Source: an uncultured Chromatiales bacterium (lineage in GTDB: Bacteria > Pseudomonadota > Gammaproteobacteria > CBFCYW01). From it: DNA of 64,000 nucleotides. The notes beneath the pieces are model-generated. The model saw only the letters and a list, made by a program, of their open reading frames with translations, did not search any database and was not told where the DNA came from. Where the stretch lies: NCBI GenBank assembly GCA_965602395.1, contig CBFCYW010000005.1, positions 5,486 through 69,485 of the forward strand, read 5' to 3'. Within the stretch, counting starts at the first letter, position 1. Every line of letters begins with the position of its first letter. This document shows positions 1 to 49,096 of this stretch, in pieces. The translations under genes were made by a program, and so were the position numbers.

Positions 1-2
1 GC

Positions 3-272
3 GAAGCGCTGCTCGAACCGCTGTCGCGCCAGCCCTGGGATGGCCCCATCGAGGCGGCCGGTGCCCGGCAGGCGAGCGTCGCCGTGGTGTTTCGTTTCGA
101 CGGTCTCGGCGAAGCGCAGAGCCACCTGCATTTCGACGCCCGCGGGCGGCCGGTGCAGATTCGCGACGGCGTCGCCCATCGCCTGCTCGGCGGCAGGATC
201 GGCCTGCGCTTCGCCGGTCACCGGCGCATCATCCGCGTGCTGCCGCTCAGCGGCCGGGTGGTGCTGCAGTGA
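3..272 (+). CDS. C-terminal fragment of an upstream gene (5' end outside window). Last gene before the pilus minor-pilin genes; function unknown.
   Basis: Open frame from window edge to TGA at 270-272; GC3-rich codons; its stop overlaps the GTG start of the next gene (GTGA), typical operon coupling. No recognisable motif. Confidence 0.3.
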   Translation, partial: EALLEPLSRQPWDGPIEAAGARQASVAVVFRFDGLGEAQSHLHFDARGRPVQIRDGVAHRLLGGRIGLRFAGHRRIIRVLPLSGRVVLQ

Positions 273-739
273 GCGCGCATCGCCAGCGTGGTCTCGGCTA
301 CATCGAAGTGATCCTCGCCGCGGCGCTGCTGGCGCTGGCGCTGGTGCCGGCGCTGGATGCGCTGCGCAGCGCGTTGTCAATCGCTGCGCACAGCGCCGAT
401 CTGCAGCAGCGCCAGCTGGCGCGGCGGGCGCGGATGGAGGCGGTGCTCGCCGAGCCCTTTGGCGCGCTGCTCGCCGAGGCCGCGTTGCACAACGACGCGC
501 GCGCCGCGAGCCGCTGGTCCGACCCGCCGGGCAGCGCGGGGCGCCTGCTGGTGCAGCTGCAGCTGCACGACTTCGGCAACCTCGATGGCGACGGCGACTC
601 CGCGACCATCGCCGACCCGGATCTGGATGGCGACGCCAACCCCTACAGCGGCGATGACAGCCCGGTGGACGCCCTGCGCGTGCGCGTGCTGGACGAAGAC
701 GGCGGCGCTGTGCTGGACGCCCTGAGCCTGCGTCGATGA
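269..739 (+). CDS. Type IV pilus minor pilin-like protein (prepilin-type N-terminal domain)
   Basis: 156 aa. N-terminus RGLGYIEVILAAALLALALV resembles the prepilin cleavage/methylation motif (G-F/Y-x-x-I/L-E followed by a hydrophobic helix). Sits in an operon with other pseudopilins. Confidence 0.5.
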   Translation: MSAHRQRGLGYIEVILAAALLALALVPALDALRSALSIAAHSADLQQRQLARRARMEAVLAEPFGALLAEAALHNDARAASRWSDPPGSAGRLLVQLQLHDFGNLDGDGDSATIADPDLDGDANPYSGDDSPVDALRVRVLDEDGGAVLDALSLRR

Positions 740-757
740 GCCTGCGTCAATGAGCCT

Positions 758-1762
758 GTGCCGATGAACCGCGCGCGTCGTGTCAGTGGCCGTCGCCAGC
801 GCGGCCTCAGTCTGCTGGAGCTGCTCATCGCCACGCTCATCGGCGGCCTGCTGATGGTCGCCGTGGACGGCGTCATCGGCGCCGCCCTGGCGCTGCGCGA
901 GGAGGCCGGTGCGCAGCATCGTTTGGCGCGCGCCGGCGCCTTCGCCATGCAGCGCATGCTCGACGCCGCGGCGCACAGTCCCGGGCTGATCCTGCCGCTG
1001 CGCGACAAGCCCGACACCGCCATCGCCGAGCACATCCGCGATGGTCGCCAGCCACCAACCCGGATCGGCAGCTATTTCGGCATGCCGCTGTACGCCAGCG
1101 GCGTGCTGGCACTGCGCCTGCCGCGCCATCTCGACCTCGATGCCGACGGCATCGCCGACGCCGACAACGACGGCGACGGCCGCTTCGATGAAGACCTGCC
1201 CGCCGACGCCAGCAACGACAACGACAACGGCGTGCGCAACATCGACGACAACGACAACGGCTTTATCGACGCCGCCACCTGGATGCGCGCGGACGACGAC
1301 GAGGACGCCAGCCAGAGCGAGGACCCGATCAACGGCATCGACGACGACGGCGACAACAATTTCGACGAGGACCCCGGTGCGGACATGAACGGCGACGGCG
1401 CGCCCGGCGTGCGCGGCATCGATGACGATGGCGACGGTGCGGTCGATGAGGGCGACGCGGCCGATGACGACGAGGATGGCCGCGTCGATGAAGACTGGCT
1501 CGACCCGCTGGTGTTCTACCTGCGCGATGGCCGGCTCCTCGAGCAGACGCCACTGCCCTGGGATGCCGACGGCGATGGCGATATCGATGGTCGCGACACC
1601 GCCACCGAAGTCCTGCTGGAGGGTGTGACGCGCTTTCGCGTCGAGCGCGTGGCGCTGCCCGGCGGTCGCGACGAGCTGATCGACATTCTGCTCGAATACC
1701 GTGTTGATGGGGTTCGCAGCCACAGTTTGAGCGCCAGCGTGCGCATCGGCGGTGGCCTGTGA
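758..1762 (+). CDS. Pseudopilin (PilW/MshO-like) carrying an extended aspartate-rich Ca-binding-loop-like repeat region
   Basis: 334 aa. N-terminus RGLSLLELLIATLIGGLLMVAV is a prepilin-type motif. Residues about 125-285 hold more than 10 DxDxDG / DxDxNG loops (DADGIAD, DNDGDGRFDED, DDDGDNNFDED, DADGDGDIDGRD). GTG start at 758, ATG alternative at 764. Confidence 0.6.
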   Translation: MPMNRARRVSGRRQRGLSLLELLIATLIGGLLMVAVDGVIGAALALREEAGAQHRLARAGAFAMQRMLDAAAHSPGLILPLRDKPDTAIAEHIRDGRQPPTRIGSYFGMPLYASGVLALRLPRHLDLDADGIADADNDGDGRFDEDLPADASNDNDNGVRNIDDNDNGFIDAATWMRADDDEDASQSEDPINGIDDDGDNNFDEDPGADMNGDGAPGVRGIDDDGDGAVDEGDAADDDEDGRVDEDWLDPLVFYLRDGRLLEQTPLPWDADGDGDIDGRDTATEVLLEGVTRFRVERVALPGGRDELIDILLEYRVDGVRSHSLSASVRIGGGL

Positions 1763-4700
1763 GCGGCGCCGCCGATACCCGCGGACAGCGCGTGGCCGCC
1801 GCCAGCCGCGGCGCGCACAGGCGCCGTGCAGATGGCTTCGTGCTGATCTCGGTGCTGCTGGCGATCAGCCTGCTGGCGGCGCTGGTCGCGGCCTTGAACC
1901 TGCAGGCCGGCGGCAACCTGTCGGGCGATGCCGAGCTGCGCCGCCAGCAGCTCGACTATCTGTTGCAGGCCGGCGCCGGCCATGCCCAGTGGCTGCTGGC
2001 CAACGCCGGCTGCGCCGCTTACGCGCTGCCCGAGCAGCGCTTCGGCACCGGCAGTTACAGCGCCAGCTTCAGCCCGCAGCAGGGCTCGCCGGTGCGCTTG
2101 CAGATCAAAGCCGCGCTGGACGACGGCCCGAGCGGCCAATTGCTGCGCGATGCGATGCCCGCCTATCAGCCCGGCGAGCGCCTGCTGCTCGACCCCGGGG
2201 CGGCGCTCAAAGAGGCCTACATCCACGAGTCGAACAGCGACCACAACCACGGCGATAGCGATCACCTGCGGCTGGACGACGACGATTCGCGCTACTACGC
2301 GCTGATCGAATTCGATCTCGACGCGCTGCCCGAGCAGAGCCACGTCAGCTCGGCACAGCTCGGTCTGTCGCTGCAATCGCTGGACGGCGATGGCGGTGAG
2401 GATGGCGCGATCACCGCCTATCGCCTGCTGCAGCCGTGGAGCGAGAGCGAGGCCAGTTGGGATCAGGCCGATGATGGCCGCGCCTGGAGCTGGCCGGCGG
2501 CCTACGACGCCGTCGCCCCGGTGGCGCGCGTCGATTTCGCCGGCGCAAGCCCTGGCCAGCGCTACCGCTGGGACATCACCGAACTGCTGCGCGGCTGGCA
2601 CAGCGGGCGCTACCCGAACCACGGTCTGGTGCTGATCGCCAGCGGCGGGATCGACGACGCCCGGTTCGCCAGCGGTGACGCCAAAGACCCGCAGCTGCGC
2701 CCGCGCCTGCAGATCGACCACGCCTGCGAATGCGGCCGCGATTGCGGTCGCCAGTGCGGCGCCGGCAGCTATCGCGACGATTTCGCCGCAGCCAGCTACG
2801 GCAACCACGATGGCGAGCTGAGCTGGGCCGGCGACTGGCGCGAGCGCGACGGTGCCGGCGGCGGCGCCACTGGTGGCGACGTTTACATCGAATCCGGCCG
2901 GCTGCAGCTCAGCGACAACGCCGCCGCTGGCGCCGCGATCGAGCGCGCGCTGGATCTCTCCGCGGCGGCCTACGCGGTGCTCGAAATGGTCGCCGCGCGC
3001 AGCGCCTTCGACGACCCCGGCAGCGATGGCGTGCTGCTGGAGATCTCCGCCGATGGCGGCGGCAGCTGGTCGCTGCTGGAGGATTTTGCCGCCCAGCCGG
3101 CCGGCGCCAGCCTGCGTCGCCGCTACGACATCGGCGCCTGGCGCAGTGCGGATACGCGTCTGCGGCTGCGCGTGCACAGCGGCTACAGCCAGCCCGACGA
3201 GCACTTCAGCGTCGAGCGTCTGCGGGTGCGCACCGCCTGCGCGCCGATCGCCGCACAGTGCGATGCCAACTACCTGCCGGATGCATTCATCGGCGGTTTC
3301 TCCACCGCGGCGCTGAGCGACGGCTGGGGCCTCAGCTATCTGCCCGGCGGCACGCGGCTGTTCGGCGCGGCCGTTCCGGCGGCCGGTGGCTGGCTGCTGG
3401 TCGACAGCGCCGCTGGCCGGCTCTCGATCACCGATTTCGATGGCAATCCGCTTGGCGGGCTGGATGTCTCGCTCGGCAGGCCGACCGGTGCGGCGTGGAT
3501 CGACACCGGCCCCTGGGCCGGGCATCTGGCCGTCGGCGACGAGAGCAGTGCCGGCGTGTATCTGCTGGATGCCGAGGGCCAGATCCGCCACAGCTTCTCC
3601 ACGCTGGCCTTCACCGACCGGCCGCTGGGCATGGATTTCATCTCCAACACCGCCAGTTGGCAGCACGACGGGCTGCTGCTGATCAGCAGCGACCGCGACC
3701 GCGACGGCGCGCCCGCCGGCGGGATTCACATCAGCGATTTCGACGGCCAGCTGCGCCACAGCCGGTATGCCCAGATGCCCGAGAACCCGATCAACGGCGT
3801 CGCCCATCTGCCGGGCAGCGATCTGGCCTTGCTGGTCTCGGGTTCGCGGCTCGGCATGCTGATGGATCTGACGTTCGGGAGCAACGGCAGTTATGCCACC
3901 GGGGATTTCGGCATCACCGCGCCGCGCGGTGTGGACATCGAGCCGGGCCGCTGTGATCAGACCATTCTCGGCGGCGACAGCGCGTGGCTGCGGCGTCTCA
4001 ATCGCGCCTCCGAAACCAGTTATCTGGACCGGCTGATAGGCGCCGGATACAGCGGCAGCGATGGCCGGCTGGACTGGTCGGTTGGCTGGCTGGAGAGCGG
4101 CGAGTCGGACGGCCCGCAGAGCGGCGAGCTGCGCGTGGCGGACAGCGTGCACTGCGCCAGCGGTCGCTGCCTGCGTATCGGCGGCGAGGGCGACGGCACG
4201 GCGCGCGAAATCGGTGCCCGGCAGCTCGGTCGCGCCGCCAATCTGAATACCTCTATCGACCCGACGAGTTCGGCGTGGCTGAGTTTCGAGCTGGCCGCCG
4301 TGGGCAGCGGCGGCGGTCGGCTGGATCTGCAGGTCAGCGACGGCGGCGGCAGCTGGGTCACGCTGGACAGTTTCACGCTCGATGGCAGCCTGCCGGTGGT
4401 GCCGACCCGACAGCAATACGATGTGCTCGATTACGCCAGCAGCGATTTCCAGCTGCGCTTCAGCTTCACCGGCAACCTGCCGGCCACGGGGCTGGAGGCG
4501 CTGTTCATCGACGATGTGGCGATCGACGTCGAATTTTCCACCGCGCCATCGGGCGATGGTGGCGATGACGGCGGTGGCAGCCCCCCGCCCCCCGGCCCCG
4601 ATCCCGGCGCCTGCGTGGGCGACTACGCCGACAACTTCGTCAGCGCCAGCTACAGCAACAGCGACGGCAGCCTGAACTGGGACAAGCGCTGGGTGGAGGT

Positions 4701-5118
4701 GGCCGAGGGCGATGGGCCTTCAGCCGGCGATATCCGCATCGGCAGATACGATGGCCGCAACGTGCTGCGGCTCAAGGACAACGGTGTCGGCAACGGTGAG
4801 GGGATCTACCGACCGGTGGATCTGAGCGGCTACTCCGGCAGCCCGGTGACGCTCGGCTTCGACTACCGGCGCAGCGGCTTCGACAACGCTAATGACTGGG
4901 TAGCGGTGCAGGTGAGTGCTGACGGCGGCGCCAACTGGGATGAACTGCTGCGCCTGTCCGGCCCGGCCAGCGACAGCACGTCGCAGCTCGCCGAGGTCGA
5001 TCTGAGCCGCTACGCCGGCAGCTCCGTGCGGCTGCGGCTGATGACTTCGCCGCGGCTCGGCAATCTCGATGCGCTGCGCCTCGCCGCGCTGCGCATCGTC
5101 ATCGGCGACTGTCCCTAG
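1759..5118 (+). CDS. Large pilus-associated adhesin-like protein (MshQ/PilY1-like) with a PilX/MshP-like pseudopilin N-terminus
   Basis: 1119 aa. GTG start overlaps the upstream stop. N-terminal hydrophobic segment GFVLISVLLAISLLAALVAALN. A Cys-rich stretch (CECGRDCGRQCG), three ~165-aa internal repeats, and a central G/D-rich region with propeller-like repeats. Lies directly upstream of pilM/N/O/P/Q-like genes. Confidence 0.6.
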   Translation: MSGAADTRGQRVAAASRGAHRRRADGFVLISVLLAISLLAALVAALNLQAGGNLSGDAELRRQQLDYLLQAGAGHAQWLLANAGCAAYALPEQRFGTGSYSASFSPQQGSPVRLQIKAALDDGPSGQLLRDAMPAYQPGERLLLDPGAALKEAYIHESNSDHNHGDSDHLRLDDDDSRYYALIEFDLDALPEQSHVSSAQLGLSLQSLDGDGGEDGAITAYRLLQPWSESEASWDQADDGRAWSWPAAYDAVAPVARVDFAGASPGQRYRWDITELLRGWHSGRYPNHGLVLIASGGIDDARFASGDAKDPQLRPRLQIDHACECGRDCGRQCGAGSYRDDFAAASYGNHDGELSWAGDWRERDGAGGGATGGDVYIESGRLQLSDNAAAGAAIERALDLSAAAYAVLEMVAARSAFDDPGSDGVLLEISADGGGSWSLLEDFAAQPAGASLRRRYDIGAWRSADTRLRLRVHSGYSQPDEHFSVERLRVRTACAPIAAQCDANYLPDAFIGGFSTAALSDGWGLSYLPGGTRLFGAAVPAAGGWLLVDSAAGRLSITDFDGNPLGGLDVSLGRPTGAAWIDTGPWAGHLAVGDESSAGVYLLDAEGQIRHSFSTLAFTDRPLGMDFISNTASWQHDGLLLISSDRDRDGAPAGGIHISDFDGQLRHSRYAQMPENPINGVAHLPGSDLALLVSGSRLGMLMDLTFGSNGSYATGDFGITAPRGVDIEPGRCDQTILGGDSAWLRRLNRASETSYLDRLIGAGYSGSDGRLDWSVGWLESGESDGPQSGELRVADSVHCASGRCLRIGGEGDGTAREIGARQLGRAANLNTSIDPTSSAWLSFELAAVGSGGGRLDLQVSDGGGSWVTLDSFTLDGSLPVVPTRQQYDVLDYASSDFQLRFSFTGNLPATGLEALFIDDVAIDVEFSTAPSGDGGDDGGGSPPPPGPDPGACVGDYADNFVSASYSNSDGSLNWDKRWVEVAEGDGPSAGDIRIGRYDGRNVLRLKDNGVGNGEGIYRPVDLSGYSGSPVTLGFDYRRSGFDNANDWVAVQVSADGGANWDELLRLSGPASDSTSQLAEVDLSRYAGSSVRLRLMTSPRLGNLDALRLAALRIVIGDCP

Positions 5119-5174
5119 CGCGGCACGCGGATTGCCCAACGCCCTCTCGGCTGGGCCACGGCCGGCTCTTAAAC

Positions 5175-6524
5175 GTGACGCCGCAGCTAAAGAAAGGCCC
5201 GTCTATTCCGCTATTTCGGGCAGTCAATCGCCGGATCGATCAGCTCCCGATGCCACCCCTCGCAGACAAACTCTCCGCGCCCGGCGGGCTCTTCGAAGCC
5301 CGCTTCGGGCGCTCGTTCGGCCGGCTGCCAGGCGGGTCGTCCGGGAGGTTGGCAGGCCTGCTGCCCGGCGCGGCGAAGTGGGCAAGCGAGCGCTCCCCCG
5401 TGCCGGGCGAGGAGGCGCGGCACGGCGGCGACGTCGAGATCGGGCCGATCGGCTTCGAGCTGGGCGAGCGCGAACTGCACCTGCTGCAATTGCAGCGCAG
5501 CGGCGGCGAGCTGCGCATCCGCGCCGCGAGCAGCTGCGCTTATCCCTGTGCGCGCGATGAGCTGTGCGCCGCGCCGCGCCGCCTGCGCCGTTTCGTTGCC
5601 GGCGCGCTGGCGGCGCAGCCGTTTAGCGGGCGCTGCGTCGTCGCCTGCACGCCGGTGCACAGCCTGCGCCTGATCATGCTCGAATACACCCTCGACCCGG
5701 GCGAGGACGAGCCGGCACTGATTCTGCGCCAGACGCTGGAGCGGATCGGTGGCTCGCCGGCCGATTGGGTGATCGATTACCTGCCGCTGCGCCGCCGCGT
5801 GCGCGAGGAGCGCAAGCGCGCCGCGCTGGTGGCGGTGGTGCCACACGCCGCCCAGGTAGCCCATCTGGAGCTGTTGCGTCGCGCCGGCCTGCGCGTGCAG
5901 GCGCTGGAGATCGGCCCGCTGGCGATCCGCCGTCTGGTGGTCGCCAGCGGCGCCGCCGAGCGCGGTGAATACCACAACGTGCTGGTCATCAACATCGGCC
6001 CCGACAAAGGCTATCTGACCGTGATTTCCGGGCGTCGCCTGCTGCTCGATCGCGAGATCGCCTTCGGCGAGGCGCAGCTGCTGGCGCGCCTCGGCGCCGC
6101 GCTGCAGATGGACGAGGGCGAAGGCCGGCGCGCGCTGCGGGACTTCGGCTTCGCGGCCCCCGGCGATGCCGATTGCCGCAGCGCGGGCGGGGCGACCGCC
6201 GGGGAGATCGTCGCCGCGCTCACCGAGATCACCCGCCCGGCGTTGCACGAGCTTCGCCGCGAAGTGGACAAGGTGCTGCTCTACCTCGCCGCGCAACTGC
6301 ATGGCGCCGGCGTCGATTCGGTGTATCTGCTCGGCTGTGCGGCGCACTGGCCCGGTGCCTGCGAGTTGTTTGGCGGGCTGCTGCAGCGACCGGTGACGCT
6401 GCTCGATCCGTTCGCGGGGTTTGCCGCCGGCGCCGGTGCGGCGCCCGTCGACGGGCACCCAGCGAGCACCGGCATGGCGCTGGCCGCCGGCTGCGCGCTG
6501 CGCGGGCTGCTGCCGGATGACTGA
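5175..6524 (+). CDS. Type IV pilus assembly protein PilM/MshI-like (actin-like ATPase fold)
   Basis: 449 aa. Position in the pilM-N-O-P-secretin series; the stop overlaps the next gene's start. The central region has the glycine-rich actin-like fold pattern typical of PilM. GTG start; the true start is uncertain. Confidence 0.55.
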   Translation: MTPQLKKGPSIPLFRAVNRRIDQLPMPPLADKLSAPGGLFEARFGRSFGRLPGGSSGRLAGLLPGAAKWASERSPVPGEEARHGGDVEIGPIGFELGERELHLLQLQRSGGELRIRAASSCAYPCARDELCAAPRRLRRFVAGALAAQPFSGRCVVACTPVHSLRLIMLEYTLDPGEDEPALILRQTLERIGGSPADWVIDYLPLRRRVREERKRAALVAVVPHAAQVAHLELLRRAGLRVQALEIGPLAIRRLVVASGAAERGEYHNVLVINIGPDKGYLTVISGRRLLLDREIAFGEAQLLARLGAALQMDEGEGRRALRDFGFAAPGDADCRSAGGATAGEIVAALTEITRPALHELRREVDKVLLYLAAQLHGAGVDSVYLLGCAAHWPGACELFGGLLQRPVTLLDPFAGFAAGAGAAPVDGHPASTGMALAAGCALRGLLPDD

Positions 6525-7176
6525 AATGAACCTGATTCCCGCCGACTACAGTCGGCGCCTGAGCCTGCTGCGCAGCCTGCGCCGCTTCGCCGCGCTGTAC
6601 CTGCTGCTGGCGCTGCTGCTCACCGGCGGGCGCCTGGCGCTGTCGCACGGCATCGAGCAGCACGGTGCGCAGATCGCCGCCGCCAACCGGGCGCGCGCCG
6701 AGCTCTCCCGACAGCGCAGCGAACTGGCCGAGCTGCGCCGCCGCGACGAGCTGCTGCAGGGCTACCTCGATGCCCTCGACGGCCTGCGCGGCGGCACTGC
6801 GGCGCAGGATGTGTTGCGCCTGGTCGATCGCGCGCTGAACCCCGGCGTGTGGTTCAGCGAGTGGCGCTTCTCCCGCGCCGGCGAGCGCGCCGATGCCGAC
6901 AGCGGCGCGGTGCGCGCCGGCTATTTCATCGTTCTGCCCGCGTCGCCGGGCGATGACGAGAGCACGGCCTGGCGTCTGCGCAGCCGCATGCAATTGCGTG
7001 CCCACGCCCTCGATCACGCGGCGATGGCCGACTTCATGCGCCGTCTCGGCGAGCAGCCGCGGGTCGCCAGCGTGCGCCTGCTGAGCAGTCAGCGCGGTGC
7101 GCGCGGCGCGGCGCTGGATTTCGATCTGGCGCTGGTGCTGCGCCCGCCGGCAGCGGCTGCGGGGGCTGGCTGGTGA
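6517..7176 (+). CDS. PilN/MshI2-like pilus assembly protein
   Basis: Starts MTEMNLIPADYSRR (PilN proteins typically begin MxxINLLP), then a single TM helix and a coiled coil. The ATG overlaps the upstream stop by 8 nt. The longer ORF from 6421 was rejected as a start. Confidence 0.6.
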   Translation: MTEMNLIPADYSRRLSLLRSLRRFAALYLLLALLLTGGRLALSHGIEQHGAQIAAANRARAELSRQRSELAELRRRDELLQGYLDALDGLRGGTAAQDVLRLVDRALNPGVWFSEWRFSRAGERADADSGAVRAGYFIVLPASPGDDESTAWRLRSRMQLRAHALDHAAMADFMRRLGEQPRVASVRLLSSQRGARGAALDFDLALVLRPPAAAAGAGW

Positions 7177-7790
7177 ACGCGCTGCTGGATCAGATATCGC
7201 CGCGCTCGCTGTGGCTGGCGATGGGCGCCTTGTTCGGGCTGAGCCTGCTCGGCAGCTATCTGTACGTCTATCGCGATGCCCTCGGCGACTACCTGCGGCT
7301 GCGCGCAGCCAACGCGGCAGCGCTGGTCGAGCCGGGCGCTGCCGCCGCGTCGTCCGGCGCGGACACTATCGAAGCCGAGCTGGCGGCGGCGCACAGCAGA
7401 CTGCTGGCGCGACGCGAAGCCTTGCTCGGCAGCGGTGCCGGGCTGCCGCCGGAGGCGGTGGTGCCGTTTGTGATCGGCGAGCTGGACCAGCTGTCGCGCC
7501 GCCACCGGGTGCGCTTTGACGGCGTTACCCCGGGCGAGCTGCGGCGCGTCATGCAATTTGAGGAGCAATCCTTCGAGATCAGCGTGCGCGGCGATTATTT
7601 CAATCTCTACGCCTGGCTGCGCGATGTGGAGCGCGCGCTGCGGCCGATGCTGGTCAAGCACTTCGAGCTGCGCCCGCTGGCTGACAGCGATGGTGGCGTG
7701 GTGATGCGTCTGCAGGTGGTGTCGTATCGCCTGCCCGATGAGTTGTCTGCGGCGCTGACCGGAATTGCCGAGAGCGGTGCGCAGCGATGA
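7173..7790 (+). CDS. PilO/MshJ-like pilus assembly protein
   Basis: 205 aa. GTGA overlap with the upstream gene. One N-terminal TM helix, then a coiled-coil domain; the order is conserved with PilN and PilP. Confidence 0.5.
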   Translation: MNALLDQISPRSLWLAMGALFGLSLLGSYLYVYRDALGDYLRLRAANAAALVEPGAAAASSGADTIEAELAAAHSRLLARREALLGSGAGLPPEAVVPFVIGELDQLSRRHRVRFDGVTPGELRRVMQFEEQSFEISVRGDYFNLYAWLRDVERALRPMLVKHFELRPLADSDGGVVMRLQVVSYRLPDELSAALTGIAESGAQR

Positions 7791-7815
7791 CAGCGGTAGC
7801 GATGGAGTTGTGGCC

Positions 7816-8244
7816 ATGAGATCGCTGCCGGCGCCAGCACTGCCGCTATCGCTGGCACTGATGCTGTTGGCATCGCCGGGGCCGTTGGCTGCGGCCGCAC
7901 AGACCGCGCCCGACGATTCGCCTGGCGAGGCGCGCGGCGACCCGGGTGGTGGCCTGGAAAGTGATCCGGCGGCGCTGCGCCACAATCCGTTTCAGCAGCC
8001 CGCGACACCCGCCGAGCTGCCTGCGCCGCGCGCTCCGGCGGGCGGCGGCGGGATGCGCATCGGTGACGATTGGCAGCCCGAATTGCGCGCGGTGCTACAG
8101 GCCGGCGATGCCTCGCTGGCCAATGTCGACGGTCAGGTACTGGCGGTCGGTGAGCGCATCCGCGGCTACCGGCTGATTCAAGTGGGCGAGCGCAGCGCCG
8201 TGCTGGCGCGCGGCGCCCGGCGGCTCGAACTGAGCCTGGAGTAG
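7816..8244 (+). CDS. PilP/MshK-like pilus assembly lipoprotein or periplasmic protein
   Basis: ATG at 7816 gives MRSLPAPALPLSLALMLLASPGPLAAAAQ (signal peptide). The C-terminal RGYRLIQVGERSAVL beta-domain is PilP-like. Lies immediately before the secretin. Confidence 0.5.
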   Translation: MRSLPAPALPLSLALMLLASPGPLAAAAQTAPDDSPGEARGDPGGGLESDPAALRHNPFQQPATPAELPAPRAPAGGGGMRIGDDWQPELRAVLQAGDASLANVDGQVLAVGERIRGYRLIQVGERSAVLARGARRLELSLE

Positions 8245-8247
8245 ATT

Positions 8248-9783
8248 ATGTCGAGATCGCATCCCCGCCCGTACCGCCGCCCGTACCGCCGCCCGCATCC
8301 CCGCCGCTTGCCGGCGCTGCTGGCCGTCGCCTGCTTCGGGCTCGCTTTGGCCGCAGCGATGCCCAGCGCGGCGCGCGCCGCCGATGATGTCCCCGCGGCA
8401 GCGACGCCAGCCGGCGATCAGCGCAGCATCACCATCGCCTTTCGCGGCACGCCGATCGCCGAGGCCTACGAGATGCTCTCGCGCCTGGGGCGGGTCAACA
8501 TCCTGCTCGGCAGCGGTGTGGACGCGCAGGTCACCGCCAATCTGTACGCCGTCTCCGCGGAGGAAGCGGTGGTGATGATCGCCGACGCCGCCGGCTACGC
8601 GGTGGAGCGCCGCGGCGACAGTTATCTGGTGCTGGATCGCGAACAGCTGGGCCTGGATGCGGTCACCGGGCACACCGCGGTGCGCAGTTTCAAGGTGCAG
8701 TACGCCGATCCGGGCAAGGTGGCCGGGGCGCTGGAGAATTACCTGTCGCGCTACGGCGAGATTACCGTGCTGGAGGCGCGCAAGCTGCTGGTGATCTCCG
8801 ACCGCCCGGAGTTTCTGCAGCGCATCGCCCGGGTGCTGGAAAACATCGATGTGCAGCCGCGGCAGATCCTCATCGAGGCGAAGATTCTCGAAGTGATCCT
8901 GCGCGACGATGAGACCTTCGGCGTCGATTGGGCGGCGCGCGGCGGCGATGGCGATCTGGGCACCAGCGGCTTTTCCGACATCGGTGGCACGGGGCTGTTT
9001 CTCAACTACCTGACCGATGATCTGGATCTGTTTCTGAAGGCGCTCAGCGAGAATGGTCGGGTGCGCACCCTGTCCACGCCCAAGCTGCTGGTGCTGGAGG
9101 ATCAGGATGCCGAGGTGGTGATCGGCGACCGCATCGGCTATCGCGTCACCACCACTGCCAATCAGGTCACCACGGAGAGCATCGAGTTCCTCGATTCGGG
9201 GGTGATTCTCAAGGTGCGCGCGGCGGTCGACAACCAGCGCCGGATCATGCTCGATGTGCACCCGGAGGTCAGCACCGGCGTGGTCAGCGATGGCATTCCC
9301 TCGTTGACCACCACCGAGGTCACCACGCAGATGATCGCCGCCGATGGCCAGCCGATCTTTATCGGTGGGCTGATCAAGCGCAGCAGCAGCGAGAGTCGTT
9401 CGGCGGTGCCCGGTCTCGGCGATCTGCCGCTGGTCGGCGGCCTGTTTTCGCGCCGCGAGGACAGCGCGCTGGTCACCGAGACGGTGGTGCTGATCACCCC
9501 GCATCTGGTCGAGCCGGGTGCGGCGCCGCAAATGCGCGATGCACGGCGGCGGGTGGATCGGCTGACTATCGATCTGCCGCCGCTGCTGGTGCCGGAGGAT
9601 ACCGGCAGCGCGCCGCTGCAGCTGGGTGTGCCGCCCGGTGGCGAGGGTGCCGGCATGTCGCGCGGCGCGACGGCTGGCGACACTGCCGCTGCGACCGGGC
9701 TCGCTGCGGCCAGTGCCGCTGGCGATGGCCGGGACGATGGCTTTCCCTGGCCGCTGCTGTTGCTGTTTGCGCTGTTGCTATAG
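8248..9783 (+). CDS. Type IV pilus / MSHA secretin (PilQ/MshL family, GspD superfamily)
   Basis: 511 aa with a signal peptide. Secretin C-domain blocks: VRTLSTPKLLVLEDQDAEVVIGDRIGY, GGLIKRSSSESRSAVPGLGDLPLVGGLF and VVLITPHLV. Confidence 0.8.
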   Translation: MSRSHPRPYRRPYRRPHPRRLPALLAVACFGLALAAAMPSAARAADDVPAAATPAGDQRSITIAFRGTPIAEAYEMLSRLGRVNILLGSGVDAQVTANLYAVSAEEAVVMIADAAGYAVERRGDSYLVLDREQLGLDAVTGHTAVRSFKVQYADPGKVAGALENYLSRYGEITVLEARKLLVISDRPEFLQRIARVLENIDVQPRQILIEAKILEVILRDDETFGVDWAARGGDGDLGTSGFSDIGGTGLFLNYLTDDLDLFLKALSENGRVRTLSTPKLLVLEDQDAEVVIGDRIGYRVTTTANQVTTESIEFLDSGVILKVRAAVDNQRRIMLDVHPEVSTGVVSDGIPSLTTTEVTTQMIAADGQPIFIGGLIKRSSSESRSAVPGLGDLPLVGGLFSRREDSALVTETVVLITPHLVEPGAAPQMRDARRRVDRLTIDLPPLLVPEDTGSAPLQLGVPPGGEGAGMSRGATAGDTAAATGLAAASAAGDGRDDGFPWPLLLLFALLL

Positions 9784-9794
9784 CCGCCGGATGC

Positions 9795-10403
9795 TTATTC
9801 GCCGCTGCGCACGGCGCGCAGATACTTGGCTCGCGAGTGGCGATTGATGTAGTCGAAACCGTTGCCGAAGTCGACGCTCAGGGGCTTTTCATCCTCGCCG
9901 GAGCTGGCCCAATAGACGCTCTCCCAAGTGTGCGGGAAGTAGGTCTGATCGATCTTGGGAATCTCGTTACCGTCCTGGAGCAGGGTTTTCAGCTCGATGC
10001 GCGTCGGCCCCCGCCAGTCGTCGAAGCCGCACAATTTGTCTTTGTTCAGCTGGTTGATGTAAGTGGCGGTGTCGCAGTCGATGTCGCCGGTGCAGCTGCC
10101 GCCGTCCTGCTCGTTGTAGCGTTCGCGATTGGCGCTCTGCAGCGCCCGCCAGGAATAGGTGTTGTTGACATCGCGCAGGCTGCTGTCGTTGGCTTTGTTT
10201 TCCCACACCAGATCGCTGCCGGCATCCACCACACAGGCCCAGTTGCGCGCACTTTCCGACACTCGCTGGCCGGCGTCGTCGAGCTTGCTGTAGGGCCCTG
10301 CGGCCTGCGCCGACAGGGTGATGCCGAGTAGCAGGCCGGACAGCAGGGTGCGGCTGAGCAGGGGCGGACGTGGGTGCCGATGGGGTTCGTGGCTTGCGAT
10401 CAT
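9795..10403 (-). CDS. Secreted DUF1566-like protein (Lcl C-terminal domain family)
   Basis: 202 aa with a signal peptide. Motifs typical of DUF1566: GQRVSESARNWACVVDAGSDLVWENK, CGFDDWRGPTRIELKTLL and YWASSGEDE...LRAVRSG. Confidence 0.5.
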   Translation of the reverse strand: MIASHEPHRHPRPPLLSRTLLSGLLLGITLSAQAAGPYSKLDDAGQRVSESARNWACVVDAGSDLVWENKANDSSLRDVNNTYSWRALQSANRERYNEQDGGSCTGDIDCDTATYINQLNKDKLCGFDDWRGPTRIELKTLLQDGNEIPKIDQTYFPHTWESVYWASSGEDEKPLSVDFGNGFDYINRHSRAKYLRAVRSGE

Positions 10404-10632
10404 GGTGCTGATACCGATGTGGTCTGGCTGAGTGAGCCGGCCGCCTGAGGCGCCGTTGTGCCGATGTCTCGCTTGGCTTCCGGGCGCGCCGGCCGCAGGT
10501 GCTGCGAGAGCGCGCTGTGGTGCAGCCTCTGCGAAGGTAATAGACTGCCGGCCCCCGTCGCAACGCCGCCGACGTGGAACTGAGCACCAGTCCCCGTCAG
10601 CGGCTTGGCGGTAGTGTCAGCGAGGCCGGAGC

Positions 10633-11145
10633 ATGAGTAGCAGTGCACAGATTCGCGACGCCGTCGCCGCGGATCTCGAATTCGTCCATCGTCTCAACGC
10701 CGCCGAGGTGCCGCGCGTCGGCGATGAGGTGCTGGTGTTTTTCGAGCACTGGCTGTCGCGCGCCTGGTCGCTGCGCATCGCCGAGCTGGACGGCCGCGCG
10801 GCGGGTTTCATGCTCGCCATGCGCGAGGACGCCGACTACGACAGCCGCAATTTTCTCTGGTTTCGCGAGCGCTTCGCCGAATTCGCCTACGTCGATCGCA
10901 TCGCCGTGGCCGATTGGGCGCGGCGCCGCGGCGCCGGCGCCGCGCTGTATCGGGATCTGGCGGAGCGGGCGCGCGCCGCGGGCCTGCCGCTGATCACCTG
11001 CGAGGTGAACACGCGGCCGCGCAATCAGCAGTCGCTGGATTTTCACGCCCGGCTCGGCTTCGGCCCGGTGGGCAGTCTGGAGCACGACGGCGGCGCCAAA
11101 GCGGTGAGCATGCTGGCACTGCCGCTGGCGGCACCCGGCGACTAG
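10633..11145 (+). CDS. GNAT family N-acetyltransferase
   Basis: 170 aa. Acetyl-CoA binding motif region RRGAGAALYRDLAERARAAG (the Q/RxxGxG/A pattern). Confidence 0.7.
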   Translation: MSSSAQIRDAVAADLEFVHRLNAAEVPRVGDEVLVFFEHWLSRAWSLRIAELDGRAAGFMLAMREDADYDSRNFLWFRERFAEFAYVDRIAVADWARRRGAGAALYRDLAERARAAGLPLITCEVNTRPRNQQSLDFHARLGFGPVGSLEHDGGAKAVSMLALPLAAPGD

Positions 11146-11183
11146 TCGCCCGGGTCGCGGCTTTGACGGGGCTGCGGTGGGCG

Positions 11184-12140
11184 CTAGTAGTGCGGGTGGT
11201 TGGCGGCGAAGTCCAGCTGGCCGCGGGCGCGCAGCTCCAGCGGCAGTAGCGCGGCGTGGCAGAAGGCCGCCACCGGCGTCGGCACGCCGACCTCGCGACC
11301 GAGCCGGATCAGCGCGCCGCACAGCGCGTCCAGCTCGGATGGTCGCTGTTGCTGGAAGTCGCGCTGCAGCGAGTTGGTGGCCGCCGCCGGCAATCCGTCG
11401 AGTACCGCCAGTTTGCGTTCGACCACTTCGCTGTCCAGGGCGATGCCGCGGGCTCGGCCGACATCGGCCACTTCGTGCATGCCGGCGGCGATCAGCGCGC
11501 GGCTCTCGGCCACCGAGCGCAGTGCGCCGAGCGGCGCGCGGGCCAGTGAGGCGGGGCCGCCCCAGCCGACGATGGCGACGAATTTCTCCCACAGTGCGAC
11601 GTGGATGTCGGCGGGTATCGTGCAGTTGATGCCGGCATCGATCAGCACATTGCGCAGTGCCGCGAGCCGCTCGCTGCGGCGGTTGTCCAGCTCGCCGATG
11701 AGGATTTCGCCGCGCAGCCCGAAGTGATTGATCACGCCCGGCTGGGGCCGCTCGCTGAGCAGTCGCGCCAGGCCGGCGACCAGGTGGCGCTCGCCCAGTC
11801 GCGCGGCCAGCGTGGGCACCGCGTCGACGCCGTTCTGCAGCGGTATCACCAGGGTGTGCGGACCGATCATCGGCCCGAGGTGCCGGGCGGCGTCGTCCAG
11901 CTGCCAGGTCTTGACCGCCATGAAGATCGCGTCGCAGCGGCCGGCGTCGGCGGGCGAGTCGCTGGCGGTGACGCTATCGAGGTGGAAGTTTCCCTCCAGA
12001 CTGAGCACGCGCAGGCCGGATTCGCGCATCACCCGCAGGTGTTCGCCGCGTTCGATAAAAAACACGTCCACACCCGCTCGCGCCAGTCTGGCGCCCAGAT
12101 AGCCACCGATTCCCCCGGCGCCGAAGATGCCGATGCGCAT
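11184..12140 (-). CDS. panE: 2-dehydropantoate 2-reductase (ketopantoate reductase)
   Basis: MRIGIFGAGGIGGYLGARL Rossmann NAD(P)-binding motif. ApbA/PanE C-terminal domain. ATG at 12140 chosen over the longer TTG/ATG extension. Confidence 0.75.
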   Translation of the reverse strand: MRIGIFGAGGIGGYLGARLARAGVDVFFIERGEHLRVMRESGLRVLSLEGNFHLDSVTASDSPADAGRCDAIFMAVKTWQLDDAARHLGPMIGPHTLVIPLQNGVDAVPTLAARLGERHLVAGLARLLSERPQPGVINHFGLRGEILIGELDNRRSERLAALRNVLIDAGINCTIPADIHVALWEKFVAIVGWGGPASLARAPLGALRSVAESRALIAAGMHEVADVGRARGIALDSEVVERKLAVLDGLPAAATNSLQRDFQQQRPSELDALCGALIRLGREVGVPTPVAAFCHAALLPLELRARGQLDFAANHPHY

Positions 12141-19800: not shown

Positions 19801-20018
19801 GTGCAATATATCATGACTCCATGCGATCACAAGTTCGCCGCTGTCGGGACCGGCTGGCCGCTGCCGGCAGTGCCGCACTGGCCGTGATCTGTGGCGCAAA
19901 ACCGCGCCGTGTAAAGGTCAAGCTATGTAAATTTCTACCGTGTCAGGTGGCAATCCGGTAGCTTGCGTGCGGGCAGACCCGTGATTAGGCTCTATTGTCA
20001 TGAGGTGATCGCTACCCG

Positions 20019-21416
20019 GTGGCCGGGCGCAGGATGGCGCTCCGGTCGCGCTGCAAAGGGAATCCGGTGCAAGTGCAAGTAATATCTAAAAATCATTTTT
20101 CGCTGCCATCGCGGCGCAGCATCACCATGCTGGTCGTGCTGCTTTTTGTGTTTGGCGCGCTGATGCTGACCGCCTCCGGGCTGTTCCGCATGAACATGAG
20201 CATCACCACCAGCGCCGGTGCCGCGGTGGCCGAGGCGCGCGATGCGCTGATCTCCTTCGGGGTGCGCACCGACGGCTACGCCAACCCCTTCGGCGAGCAG
20301 GCTGGCAGCACCTTCTGGGCGGCGCAGGTGTTGTGTCTGGTGTTGGCGCTGGGCCTGCCGTTTCTGCGCCCGATCCTCGCCTCGCTGGTCACCGGGCTGG
20401 CGGTGGCCGGAGTGATTCTGGTCTCGCTCTACGGCGATGTGAGCAGCAGTGGATTTCTGCTGCAGTTCGGCCTGCTTTCGGTATTTTTGTTGTTCGTTAC
20501 CTACGTGCTGCTGTCCTTCTACGGCGAGCTGGTCGACCGGCGTCGCCTGACCCAGGTTTTCAGCCAGTACATCCCACCGGAGCTGGTGGCCGCCTACAGC
20601 CGCAGCAACAAGCCCATCGATCTCGACGGTGAGGCGCGCGACATCACGGTGATGTTCTGCGATATCGAGGGATTCACCACCATCTCCGAGCGGCTCGACC
20701 CGCGCGCCCTGGCGCAGTGGCTGAACCAGTACTTCAGCGTGGTCAGCCAGATCATCGTGCGCCACAACGGCACCATCGACAAATACATGGGCGACAGCGT
20801 GATGGCCTTCTGGGGCGCGCCGGTGCACAACGACAATCACGCCCGCGATGCGCTGACTGCGGCGCTGGAGATCGTCGAAGAGCTGGACGCCCTGTGTCGC
20901 AAGCTCAAGCGCGACGGCCTGCCCGAGTTCAAGGTCGGCATCGGCATCTCCTCCGGGGTGTGCAACGTCGGCAACATGGGCTCGGAGTTCCGCATGGCAT
21001 ACACCGTGGTCGGCGACACGGTCAACGTCGCCGAGCGCCTCGAACGACAGACGCGGACCTACAAGGTGCCGGTGATCGTCAGCGAGAGCACTACGCACCA
21101 GCTGCCGGAGATGGTTTTCCGCGAGCTGGATGTGGTGCGCGTCAAGGGCCGCCACAACCAGGTGAAGATTTTCCAGCCGATCTGCCCCCGCCGCGAGGTG
21201 GACGACGAGACCCGCCGCGTACTGGCGGTGCACTCGCAGGCGCTGTCCCACTACCGCGCCGGCGAATACGCCGCGGCCCACAGCCAGTTCGAGCAACTGC
21301 TTGAAATCGGCGGCGATGATCCGGTCTACAGCATGTACCTGAAGCGCACCGCCGAATATCTGGAGGGCGGGCTGGTACAAAAGGCCGGTGAGCTGGCTGG
21401 TCGCGCCTACCACTGA
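20019..21416 (+). CDS. Membrane-anchored class III adenylate/guanylate cyclase
   Basis: N-terminal region with 4-6 TM helices, then a cyclase domain (FCDIEGFT, GDSVMAFWGAP, TVVGDTVNVAERLE). Start uncertain (20019 or 20127). Confidence 0.75.
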   Translation: MAGRRMALRSRCKGNPVQVQVISKNHFSLPSRRSITMLVVLLFVFGALMLTASGLFRMNMSITTSAGAAVAEARDALISFGVRTDGYANPFGEQAGSTFWAAQVLCLVLALGLPFLRPILASLVTGLAVAGVILVSLYGDVSSSGFLLQFGLLSVFLLFVTYVLLSFYGELVDRRRLTQVFSQYIPPELVAAYSRSNKPIDLDGEARDITVMFCDIEGFTTISERLDPRALAQWLNQYFSVVSQIIVRHNGTIDKYMGDSVMAFWGAPVHNDNHARDALTAALEIVEELDALCRKLKRDGLPEFKVGIGISSGVCNVGNMGSEFRMAYTVVGDTVNVAERLERQTRTYKVPVIVSESTTHQLPEMVFRELDVVRVKGRHNQVKIFQPICPRREVDDETRRVLAVHSQALSHYRAGEYAAAHSQFEQLLEIGGDDPVYSMYLKRTAEYLEGGLVQKAGELAGRAYH

Positions 21417-45505: not shown

Positions 45506-48500
45506 TCAGTCGCCGTGGCGCAGTGGGCAGCCCGCTGCGTCGGCGTCTGCGTCGGCGTCTGTGTCGGCGTCGGCGCAGGGCGGCGGCCCGGACTGCTCCG
45601 GCTGCGGGCCGCGACGCGGCAGGCAGAAGGTGAATGCCGCGCCGCCGCCATCGCGGTTGACCGCGCCGATGCCGCCGCCGTGCAGGTGCACGATTTTGCG
45701 GCAGATGGCCAGCCCCAGACCGGTGCCGCCGGCGCCGGTGCGGGTATTGCTGGATTGCACAAATTCGTCGAAGACCAGATCCAGCTCACCGCTCGGGATG
45801 CCCGGCCCGCGGTCGCGAACGCTGCAGGCCAGGTTGTCCTGCCCCGCTTGGCCACTGTCATCGGCGGCCGCACCGCACTCCTCCAGCAGGACATCGATAG
45901 CGCCGCCATCGGGGGAGAATTTCACTGCGTTGGAGAGCAGATTGCGCACTACCTGCTGGATGCGAATGCCGTCGCAGCGCAGTTGTGCGTCGCGCAGCCG
46001 ATTGTGGCAGTGGATCTGGATATCGCGCCGGCTGAGTAGCGCGGAGAATTCCTCCAGCACCGTCTGCACCAGGTTGCGGAAATTCTCCTCGGCAAAGTCC
46101 ATGTGCATCTGCTCGGCCTCCAGCTTGGAGAGATCGAGCAGGTCGTTGAGCAGTGCCAGCAGGCGTTCGCCGCTTTCGCCGATGCGGCGGAAATAGTGGC
46201 CGAGCTTGTCGCGCTCGGCCCGCGCTGCACGCTTGTCGCCCATGCCGGCGAAGCTGAGGATGGCGTGCATCGGCGTGCGCAGCTCGTGGGATATGTTGGC
46301 GAGAAATTCGCTCTTGAGTTGATTGGCGCGCTCGGCCTCTTCCTTGGCGCGCAGCAGGTCGGCGCTGCGCGCGTCGACCAGTTGTTGCAGATTGTCGCGA
46401 TGCTCGCGCAGCTCATCCTCGGCGTTTTTTTGCGCGCTGATGTCGGTGCGGATGCCGACCACGCCGCCCTCGCGGGTGGCGGTTTCGCGCACCCAGATCC
46501 AGCGGCCGTCGGCGAGGCGTATCTCCTGGCTGAAATCGGCGGTGCGGTGTCCGCTCAGGCGCTGGGCGACGAAGCGTTCGCTCTCGGCTTCATCGGCGAA
46601 ATAGCCGTAGCCCTGCGGGTGGTTGACGGCGTAGCGCACCAGCTCTTCGAAGGGCATGCCGCGGTAGTAGTTGAAGCCTGTGGGATTGAAGATGTCCTTC
46701 TGGGCCCGATTCCAGATCACCAGCCGGTCGTCGGCGTCGTAGAGCATGAAGCCGCCGGGCATGCTTTCGATGGCCTCGTGCAGGCGCTGCTGGGCCAGTT
46801 CCAGCTCGGCTTCGAGCTGCTTGCGCTCGGTGATGTCCTGCATGTAGCCGGTGGATAGCGTGCTGCCATCGGCCTGGCGCGCGGGTACGCCGGTCGCTTC
46901 GATCCAGCTCCAGCCGCCGTCTTTGCGGCGCATGCGGATCTGCTCGTGGAAGGGCGTCAGCTCGCGGCTGCTGCACTCGGTGCTGGCCCGCACGCGTGAC
47001 ACATCGTCGGGGTGCACGGCGTCGAAGAGCTGATTCGGGTACTGCTGCAACACTTCCACGGGGTAGCCGAGCAGGCGTTCGGCGCCGCGGCTGAGGTAGG
47101 GCAGCTGCGGGTTGCCGGCGGTGTCGATGTGGAGCTGGTAGATGCCGCCCGGCACTTGCTCGGTGATGTCGCGCAGGCGCGCTTCGATGCGCTCGGCACG
47201 CTTTTCTTCGGTGATGTCGCGCATCAGCCCGGCGATCGCCGTGGTGCGCTCGCGGCCTGCGGCATCGCCGCTGCGTTCGGCCTTAAAGTGGATGAACAGG
47301 TGGCGCTGCTCGCCGTGGCGCAGGATGCGCACTTGCAGGGTCTGCTCGCAGCCGCTTTTCAGGCAGTCGCGCGCCGAGCTGCGCACGCGCGGCTGATCGT
47401 CGGGGTGGAAGAGCGCCGCGGCCTGCGCATTCGCGCACCGCTCGACCGGCGGCAGGCCGAGAATCCGGCAGGATTCCGGCGAGACGCTGAAGGAGTCGTC
47501 GCCCACCTCCCAGCGCCAGCTGCCGACGCTGGACAGTGCCTCGGCGCGTTCCAGCATCTGCTTTTGGCGCGCCAGCATCTGGCTGGCACGGCGCGCTTCG
47601 GTGACGTCGGTCAGCATCCCGTAGTAGCCGATCACGCCCTGCCCGGATGCCTCGTGGGGGATGTAGTCGATGTGCAGGATGCGCCACTCACCGCGCACCT
47701 GCGTGGGCGCGTCGAAGGACTGCGGCTGGCCGTCGAGCACGCCGCGGATATGCTCTGCCAGCATGGCGTAGCGCTCGGCGCTGGTGCAGGTGGCGACGTG
47801 CTTGCCGATCGGCAGGCCGCAGTCGGGGAACCAGTGCATCCAGGTGTTGTTGACCTGGCGGAAGACCTCCTCGCGGTCGACGTAGATGATCGCCGCCGGC
47901 ACGCTGTCCATCATCAGCTGCATCTGCTGCTCGGCCCGCTTGCGCGCGCTGATATCCTCGCAGGCGCCGCGGCAGCCGAGGTATTGGCCGCTGGCATCGA
48001 AGCGCGGGGTGCCGGTGATGCGCTCCCAGATCACCTCGCCCGACTGGCAGCGGATGCGCCGTTCTATGCTGAACGGGCGGTGCGCCTCGACCGCGGCGGC
48101 GATCTCCGCCCGCACCTGCTCGCGGTCGTCATCGACGATGTAGTCGTAGGGTGACTGGCCGAGCATCTGTGCCGCGGTGTAGCCGCGCACCAGCTGGCAG
48201 CGTTCGCTGACGAAGGTGAAGCGGGCTTGTGGGTCGGTTTCCCAGAGAAATTCGTTGACCGATTCGCTGACGTGGCGCAGGCGCTCCTCGCTTTCGCGCA
48301 GCGAGGCTTCGGCGCGGCGCCGGCTGCGTTCGCGTTCGCGCTCGCGCTGCTTCAGGTCGCTGGTGGTGCGCCGCAGCTGCAGGTGGGCGAACAGCGCGTA
48401 GCCGCCGAATGCGGCGCAGAGCAGATAGGCGAGGGTGTTGAGCCGCCGGCTGTGCTGGCGGGTTTCGGCGCGCAGGCGATCGAGCTGGGCTTTGGCGGCG

Positions 48501-48997: not shown

Positions 48998-49062
48998 TGA
49001 TGGCGCGGTGGAGGCATTGCGTTTGGATCGCTTTGATCCGCCGCAGATCGGCGCAGAAGCGT

Positions 49063-49096
49063 CGTGCTATCGATAGCACGCAACTCGCACTATAAT
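49063..49096 (+). promoter_or_regulatory. gltA promoter region: perfect 16-bp palindrome GTGCTATCGATAGCAC (49063-49078) abutting a TATAAT -10 hexamer (49091-49096)
   Basis: Read from the sequence. The -10 hexamer is 80 nt upstream of the gltA ATG. The palindrome occupies the -35 position. Confidence 0.45.

Follow-up and report, generated by a model that had tools for sequence, protein, structure and literature searches.

Locus and predicted pilin

We analysed 64,000 nucleotides of contig CBFCYW010000005.1 (positions 5,486 to 69,485; hereafter the window) from an uncultured Chromatiales bacterium, focusing on a gene near its start that encodes a predicted type IV pilin or pseudopilin with a class III signal peptide and a long acidic module set into its fold. 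The open reading frame (ORF) occupies exactly 758..1762 on the forward strand, 334 aa counted from its GTG; the database gene calls (P0001) use the ATG at 764 as the start, giving 332 aa. The gene and its features are as follows.

758..1762, + strand: GspJ-class minor pilin with inserted poly-acidic loop module (the target)
758..865, + strand: class III (prepilin) signal and N-methylation motif; Pfam N_methyl on residues 12-36
812..976, + strand: long N-terminal alpha-helix, residues 19-73; AlphaFold2 pLDDT (predicted local distance difference test) 92-97
986..1117, + strand: first beta-sheet of the pilin core, strands within residues 77-120
1118..1504, + strand: acidic module, residues 121-249, comprising loop L1 (126-137) and units 136-192 and 195-249; from invariant columns, loop conservation, hhalign and AlphaFold2
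1400..1414, + strand: residues 215-219 (APGVR), a C-P-G-x-C site in 69 of 120 homologues; from Cys covariation
1505..1744, + strand: second beta-sheet of the pilin core, residues 250-329; pLDDT 87-96
1562..1597, + strand: loop L8 (DADGDGDIDGRD), residues 269-280, a 12-residue EF-hand-like loop between strands of the second sheet; D269, G278 and D280 invariant

The N-terminus, RQRG/LSLLELLIATLIGG (slash at the predicted cleavage site, after G16), scores 26.5 bits against Pfam N_methyl PF07963 (cutoff 21.2) and 18.9 bits against TIGR02532 (cutoff 16.3). A first-pass annotation, made by a model from the sequence, had proposed a prepilin N-terminus here, and both models uphold it above their curated cutoffs. 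The target has the leader ending in Gly, the hydrophobic alpha1N helix and the Glu at +5 (E21) that characterize type IV pilins and pseudopilins; G16 and E21 are each conserved in at least 90% of 120 homologues.

AlphaFold2 with 120 sequences gave a model with overall pLDDT 87.3 and predicted template modelling score 0.83 (model m2bccdf982db2). It supersedes a run with 24 sequences, which modelled only the pilin core and left residues 122-248 below pLDDT 50. The predicted model has the N-terminal helix and two beta-sheets of the GspJ type of fold, a layout that would place the core in the GspJ/PilW class, with the module inserted between the sheets. The module itself was modelled at pLDDT 82-96 (62-72 in residues 171-190) and has hardly any helix or strand; an AlphaFold model had been suggested by the first-pass annotation as a check, and the result is a confidently modelled region nearly devoid of regular secondary structure.

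Profile searches placed the protein less closely. Curated models for J-, W- and O-type pilins (Pfam T2SSJ and PilW, NCBIfam GspJ) did not match the target, only the N_methyl motif appearing at E ≤ 0.1, and no named minor-pilin model matched in NCBIfam, a library that may not include MshO. The hhalign coverage was 21 columns for E. coli GspH and 31 for GspI. A Foldseek search of the PDB with the early, low-confidence 24-sequence model returned nothing below E 0.25.

The acidic module

Residues 121-249, 40% of the target's length, are 32% Asp, 12% Gly and 8.5% Asn. With 42 Asp, 7 Glu, no Lys and 6 Arg, the module has a net charge of -43; across the family the value ranges from -41 to -51. The first-pass annotation had described about 160 residues made almost entirely of D, N and G. 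The acidic stretch is real, but it spans 129 residues, 53% of them D, N or G.

Within the target there are seven strict DxDxDG motifs, two overlapping pairs among them, no strict DxDxNG, and ten matches to the looser [DN]x[DN]x[DN]G. Non-overlapping loops number nine, starting at residues 126, 136, 153, 163, 195, 209, 222, 236 and 269; the last of these, L8, follows the module after two beta-strands. A tenth acidic cluster, at residues 179-189, has no Gly. The central observation of the first-pass annotation, a pilin with an array of Asp-rich loops, is thus confirmed, although its count of more than 10 loops was overstated, 9-10 being the better figure. The array is not an artefact of composition: shuffling residues within 121-285 gave an expectation of 0.49 ± 0.70 DxDxDG, one-fourteenth of the observed count, and none of 20,000 shuffles reached seven.

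There is also an internal duplication. Residues 136-192 align with 195-249 (hhalign of 121-194 against 195-249, probability 98.6, E 1.1e-15), so the module can be described as L1 followed by two tandem units of ~55 residues. Each unit contains four acidic loops, of the patterns DxDGDGxIDED, PxxDxNxDGxPG, G[IV]DDDGDGxxDE and DDDEDGxxDED.

Conservation across the family

We searched 5.8 billion clustered proteins and scored 8,000 candidates. Homologues of the target number at least 1,160 at E ≤ 1e-3 when clustered at 90% identity, and about 270 clusters at 50% identity. The best 120 share ~50% identity with the target over 81-100% of the query (most 96-99%), are about 320-375 aa long with one of 408 aa, and are named, where named at all, only 'prepilin-type N-terminal cleavage/methylation domain-containing protein'. 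A literature search found no description of this pilin family or of its module. The survey of homologues for the insertion, another check suggested at first pass, found the module retained across these homologues; what had been taken for an unusual insertion in one protein instead defines a family. The module is a trait shared by many lineages, not a quirk of a single organism.

Alignments of 24 and of 120 members show ~35 invariant or near-invariant D, E, N or G columns within residues 126-246. Over eight loops in the 120 sequences, positions 1, 3, 5 and 9 hold an acidic or amide residue almost without exception, Gly fills position 6 in 78-100%, five of the eight loops have a hydrophobic residue or Pro at position 8, and positions 4 and 7 are variable. 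L8 is less strict at positions 3 and 5 (~45% D, E or N). The invariant Asp positions are shared by Methylomonas, groundwater Nitrospirae, tubeworm symbionts, Woeseiaceae and Myxococcota.

Positions 215 and 219 covary perfectly: 69 of the 120 homologues have Cys at both, none has a single Cys, and 51 have non-Cys residues, mostly Ala/Ala. The window protein belongs to the last group, with Ala and Arg. Covariation of this kind is what a disulfide would leave behind in an extracytoplasmic structure that is folded. Between phyla, the loops come and go as entire units: one unit is missing from Myxococcota copies, the first loops are missing from Planctomycetota copies, and an extra 'FLDLNxNGxRDxGEPE' loop occurs in four lineages.

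Relation to known calcium-binding loops

Eight conserved loops have the pattern of the DxDxDG calcium-loop class, with D or N at positions 1, 3 and 5, Gly at 6 and a further acidic residue at 9 or 12. The best match of the module profile to a solved structure was to the EF-hand loops of calmodulin (E 3e-4), with L3 and L4 aligning to calmodulin loops 1 and 2 at their native spacing. The resemblance to EF-hand-like loops noted at first pass is therefore borne out by the position-specific conservation of the signature and by this weak profile match.

Membership in a known family is another matter. The module resembles EF-hand and PilY1-type loops in its D1-x-D3-x-D5-G6 core, hydrophobic position 8 and acidic position 9. 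It differs from the EF-hand in that no flanking helices are predicted, position 12 is seldom Glu, and E and D occupy positions 10 and 11; we rejected EF-hand membership on the missing helices and the lack of a Pfam EF-hand match. An RTX beta-roll was likewise rejected, there being no GGxGxDxUx nonapeptides in the sequence and no beta-strands predicted in the module.

Thrombospondin type-3 repeats form a long Asp-rich array of DxDxDG type with essentially no secondary structure, stapled by disulfides. The module is like this 'wire' in its Asp-rich DxDxDG array, its near absence of secondary structure and, in many homologues, its CPGxC; it differs in Cys pattern and repeat length. The likeness had been raised in the first-pass annotation with a Pfam search as its check, and that search went against it: the TSP_3 model gave no match to the protein or to isolated modules at E ≤ 10, although the HMMER filters may hide weak matches. 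Membership in TSP_3 was rejected on this result.

The acidic unit in other proteins

A module-only profile searched against 1.84 billion representatives matched 274 proteins at E ≤ 1e-3, of which 153 reached ≤ 1e-10 and 20 reached ≤ 1e-30. In most of them the length is 270-340 aa and the module lies near residues 100-240, a size and placement indicating that they belong to the target pilin family. A minority carry a ~45-residue core of the unit, EDPxGDxNGDG(C)PGx(C)GxDDDGDGxxDEGxxxDDDEDGxxDED, in other secreted proteins; the non-pilin carriers come from both bacteria and archaea, and the unit is often in tandem. The carriers are as follows.

S8 peptidases: P0250 and L048 (about 8780-8995)
FG-GAP-type proteins: L053 and L058
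Tandem arrays of the unit: P0154
Other non-pilin secreted carriers of the ~45-residue unit: P0263 and P0264
Other modular pilins: P0201 and P0267
GspK-like proteins of Omnitrophota, 2,178 aa: L054 and L055 (9515-16051)
Proteins of ~3,700 aa in candidate-phyla bacteria, adjoining PilB/PilC/pilin genes: L069 and L073

No Pfam model covered the acidic stretches, either in isolated modules (E ≤ 10) or in the non-pilin carriers (E ≤ 1), and in NCBIfam, too, the target's module is without a model. P0250 has genuine TSP_3 repeats, located apart from its acidic units.

The pilus gene cluster

The target lies in a cluster of filament genes that begins upstream of the window. Contig L076, 99.9% identical to window positions 1-11762, supplies the upstream half. 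The members within the window are as follows.

3..272, + strand: C-terminal end of GspH-position minor pilin, cut by the window start; 184-aa gene on L076, with N_methyl and a weak GspH match
269..739, + strand: GspI-position minor pilin, 156 aa; leader QRG/LGYIE with E+5; precedes the target in ~35 loci
1759..5118, + strand: GspK-position giant pilin-like protein, 1119 aa; hydrophobic N-terminus without E+5; follows the target in nearly all loci
5250..6524, + strand: PilM-like protein; Pfam PilM_2 and TIGR01175, start from the L076 gene call
6526..7176, + strand: PilN-like protein; weak Pfam PilN match and synteny
7173..7790, + strand: PilO-like protein; weak Pfam PilO match and synteny
7816..8244, + strand: PilP-position protein, 142 aa; assigned by its position, between PilO and secretin in many loci, with no family match
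8248..9783, + strand: secretin; Pfam Secretin 132 bits, Secretin_N

The genes upstream on L076 encode a histidine kinase, a response regulator, a GGDEF/EAL protein, an ATPase with STAS, MshEN and T2SSE domains, a platform protein, a 183-aa major pilin and the 184-aa H-type pilin. The ATPase (L076 4993-7050) comes after the trio of signalling genes and has its STAS domain N-terminal to the cyclic di-GMP (c-di-GMP)-binding MshEN domain; it scores 52.7 bits against the MshE-related c-di-GMP motif NF053729 (cutoff 38). Among full-length models it scores highest with GspE and PilB, reaching the cutoff of neither. More generally, GspE, GspF, GspG and GspH score best for the ATPase, platform and pilins, none at the curated cutoff; the H-type pilin, for example, reaches 65.5 bits against NCBIfam GspH (cutoff 80). 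The secretin falls under the cutoffs of GspD, PilQ and MshL, with 128 bits for MshL (cutoff 250). With its core components below curated cutoffs, the machine fits no curated definition of type II secretion system, type IVa pilus or MSHA pilus. It differs from type II secretion in using PilMNOP and not GspC/L/M.

The gene order of pilin, GspH-like protein, ~150-aa protein, target and large protein without E+5 was found in ~30 loci in addition to L076. Placed after the H-type gene and between I-type and K-type genes, the target has the position of the GspJ/PilW class. In all, the cluster extends over at least six phyla. The same order occurs in Gammaproteobacteria (Woeseiaceae, Sedimenticola, tubeworm endosymbionts, Methylomonas, Ectothiorhodospiraceae and the cultured Oceanimonas marisflavi) and, beyond them, in Myxococcota and Desulfobacterales; partial versions occur in Nitrospirota and Tectomicrobia, and Planctomycetota loci have only the ATPase, platform and pilin genes in common. 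The homologue of O. marisflavi 102-Na3 is encoded at L019 10001-11041. No retraction ATPase was seen in any examined locus.

The GspI-position family has a conserved acidic loop, YDGDNADADxDPFTGxD, so more than one tip subunit may bind calcium; the copy in the window has an extra DPDLDGDANPYSG insert, which, of the other loci compared, only L026 shares. The GspK-position protein matches NCBIfam DNRLRE_dom (93 bits) and Pfam CBM96, Disaggr_repeat and Reelin_subrepeat-B, and has further beta-sandwich domains, making it a candidate pilus-tip lectin. Elsewhere its content is split between one CBM96 protein and one LamG_3 protein.

Directly after the secretin, on the opposite strand (9795-10403), lies a gene for a protein of 202 aa whose Lcl_C domain is the one found C-terminally in the Legionella collagen-like adhesin. 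Signalling genes abound in the remainder of the window, with a multi-PAS histidine kinase, two more histidine kinases and an adenylate/guanylate cyclase (45509-49066, 51521-54511, both - strand; 59990-62290, 20004-21413, both + strand). An 871-aa ORF (38306-40918, - strand) has a coding-like GC content of 0.90 at third codon positions and no Pfam match at 1e-5. Scans of the window for tRNA genes and Rfam families gave no matches.

A probable cation-dependent module at the filament tip

We assign a probability of roughly 0.6 to the reading that the target is a J-position minor pilin carrying a cation-dependent structural module, one that stabilises or spaces the filament tip complex. A module with a net charge of -41 to -51 cannot pack compactly without counter-ions, yet covariation, invariance and AlphaFold2 confidence all point to one fold. 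From this argument, together with the DxDxDG signature and the calmodulin match, we infer a module that binds multiple Ca2+.

On this reading the target fills the J position (GspJ/PilW class) among the minor pilins of a conserved type IV filament machine. Outside the cytoplasm, each loop would bind a divalent cation, most likely Ca2+; at roughly one ion per loop, we estimate a total of 8-10 or more ions against the net charge of -43. Cation binding would fold the module after export, in the manner of the thrombospondin type-3 'wire', into a compact structure lacking regular secondary structure, to which the CPGxC disulfide would add stability in many homologues. The module would sit at the filament tip beside the giant K-type subunit with its carbohydrate-binding-type domains, a placement made by analogy with the PilVWX tip complex and with the GspI-J-K and XcpVWX tip complexes, in which the K subunit binds two or three Ca2+ (PMC6211770). 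There it would act as a rigid cation-dependent element that stabilises or spaces the tip complex, and the folding and priming of the pilin would depend on extracytoplasmic Ca2+.

Several points weigh against this reading. The hhalign match to E. coli GspJ (probability 90.9) covers 50 columns, confined to the N-terminal helix. The calmodulin match is weak for each loop taken singly (independent E-values 0.15-0.25), and none of the curated Ca-binding families EF-hand, TSP_3, dockerin or RTX matches in Pfam. Loop position 12 is mostly L, P, W, N or variable, and not the bidentate Glu of the EF-hand. The AlphaFold2 models were made without ions, and the tip location of the target comes from analogy.

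An alternative with much the same ingredients makes the module itself the adhesive part, its poly-carboxylate surface binding, with or without Ca2+, to minerals, Fe, Mn or lanthanides, or using Ca2+ as a bridge to anionic polysaccharides such as alginate. We think this unlikely, although some of the surroundings suit it: the adjoining K-type subunit has CBM96/DNRLRE domains, CBM96 being an alginate-binding family; the hosts are mostly sediment, groundwater and symbiotic bacteria, methanotrophs included; and carboxylates also occupy loop positions 2, 9, 10 and 11, for a charge density above that of ordinary EF-hand loops. The pattern of conservation speaks the other way. Near-invariant acidic positions suit internal coordination better than a surface diversified for ligands, and the positions that would face outward are the variable 4 and 7.

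A role as calcium sensor, in which the module would report external Ca2+ or ionic strength and tune extension, retraction or adhesion, was the reading favoured at first pass and is to our minds quite unlikely. There is a precedent in the EF-hand-like Ca site of PilY1, which affects pilus function (PMC3248442, PMC8833165), and the cluster is tied to signalling through its histidine kinase, response regulator, GGDEF/EAL protein and c-di-GMP-binding ATPase. What lowers its standing is that eight to ten near-invariant sites of high charge resemble structural saturation more than a switch, that no retraction ATPase was seen in the loci, and that proteases and other secreted proteins, with no dynamics to regulate, also carry this module. 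Nothing ties the module to the cytoplasmic c-di-GMP apparatus.

That the acidic region is a disordered poly-anionic linker or spacer, free of defined loop geometry, is very improbable. Its low-complexity composition, the near absence of regular secondary structure in the model and the low confidence of the 24-sequence run would all fit a linker. This was also the outcome that the first-pass annotation had named as refuting its proposal, and it is contradicted by the ~35 invariant columns, the position-specific conservation of the loops, the covariation of the Cys pair, the gain and loss of whole units, and pLDDT values of 82-96 in the 120-sequence model.

Salt-in halophiles are known for Asp-rich proteomes, and the first-pass annotation had suggested tuning to salinity in a halophile; we regard a halophile-style acidic surface adaptation of the source organism as hardly credible, having found no supporting evidence beyond an OpuAC gene upstream on L076, since the other ORFs of the window average 5.3% Asp with a net acidic excess of 0.5 per 100 aa and the same invariant Asp positions are kept in non-halophilic lineages.

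Comparison with known pilins and significance

Structures of the GspJ class, such as GspJ/XcpW/EpsJ and TTHA1219 of PilW type, are 154-191 residues long and have no counterpart of the 129-residue acidic module. GspK/XcpX is likewise a minor pilin with a domain inserted in the pilin beta-sheet (for the GspK alpha-domain, see 10.1101/2021.01.27.428410); it binds two to three Ca2+ at the tip complex (PMC6211770). The modular pilins PilB and PilC of Streptococcus sanguinis differ in carrying their module C-terminally, via a linker, and in its belonging to a named family (vWA, lectin). In the target the module is inside the fold and has no database signature, and the survey of modular pilins admits missing such cases. 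Modular pilins are well established, as are pilus proteins with calcium sites. What is new is the combination of a J-class subunit, an in-fold module, a repeat of ~10 loops with no database signature and a conserved but unnamed machine.

A broader proposal is possible, if rather doubtful: that this unnamed multi-cation repeat (~45-55 residues, three to four loops, folding with no secondary structure) is a bacterial and archaeal counterpart of the thrombospondin wire, and marks a phylum-spanning filament subtype with T2SS-like G-H-I-J-K pilins, PilMNOP, a secretin and a c-di-GMP-sensing ATPase. Such filaments might have an I-J-K tip built with calcium and bearing polysaccharide-binding domains, for Ca2+-dependent attachment to anionic exopolysaccharide or minerals.

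Minor-pilin tip complexes prime assembly and determine what a pilus binds. For GspG, GspK and PilY1 a role of calcium is known, through just one to three sites, while the J-type subunit described here appears to devote 40% of its length to ~10 conserved loops of cation type. The cluster is carried by sediment and groundwater bacteria, symbionts, methanotrophs and Myxococcota, with Oceanimonas marisflavi as a cultured carrier. Should the loops turn out not to bind Ca2+, some other reason must be found for so strict a conservation of ~35 acidic and glycine positions. If they do, the family would provide a defined case of a cation-dependent pilus tip, and a new structural module, missed by annotation, would be present in pilins, secreted proteases and giant surface proteins.

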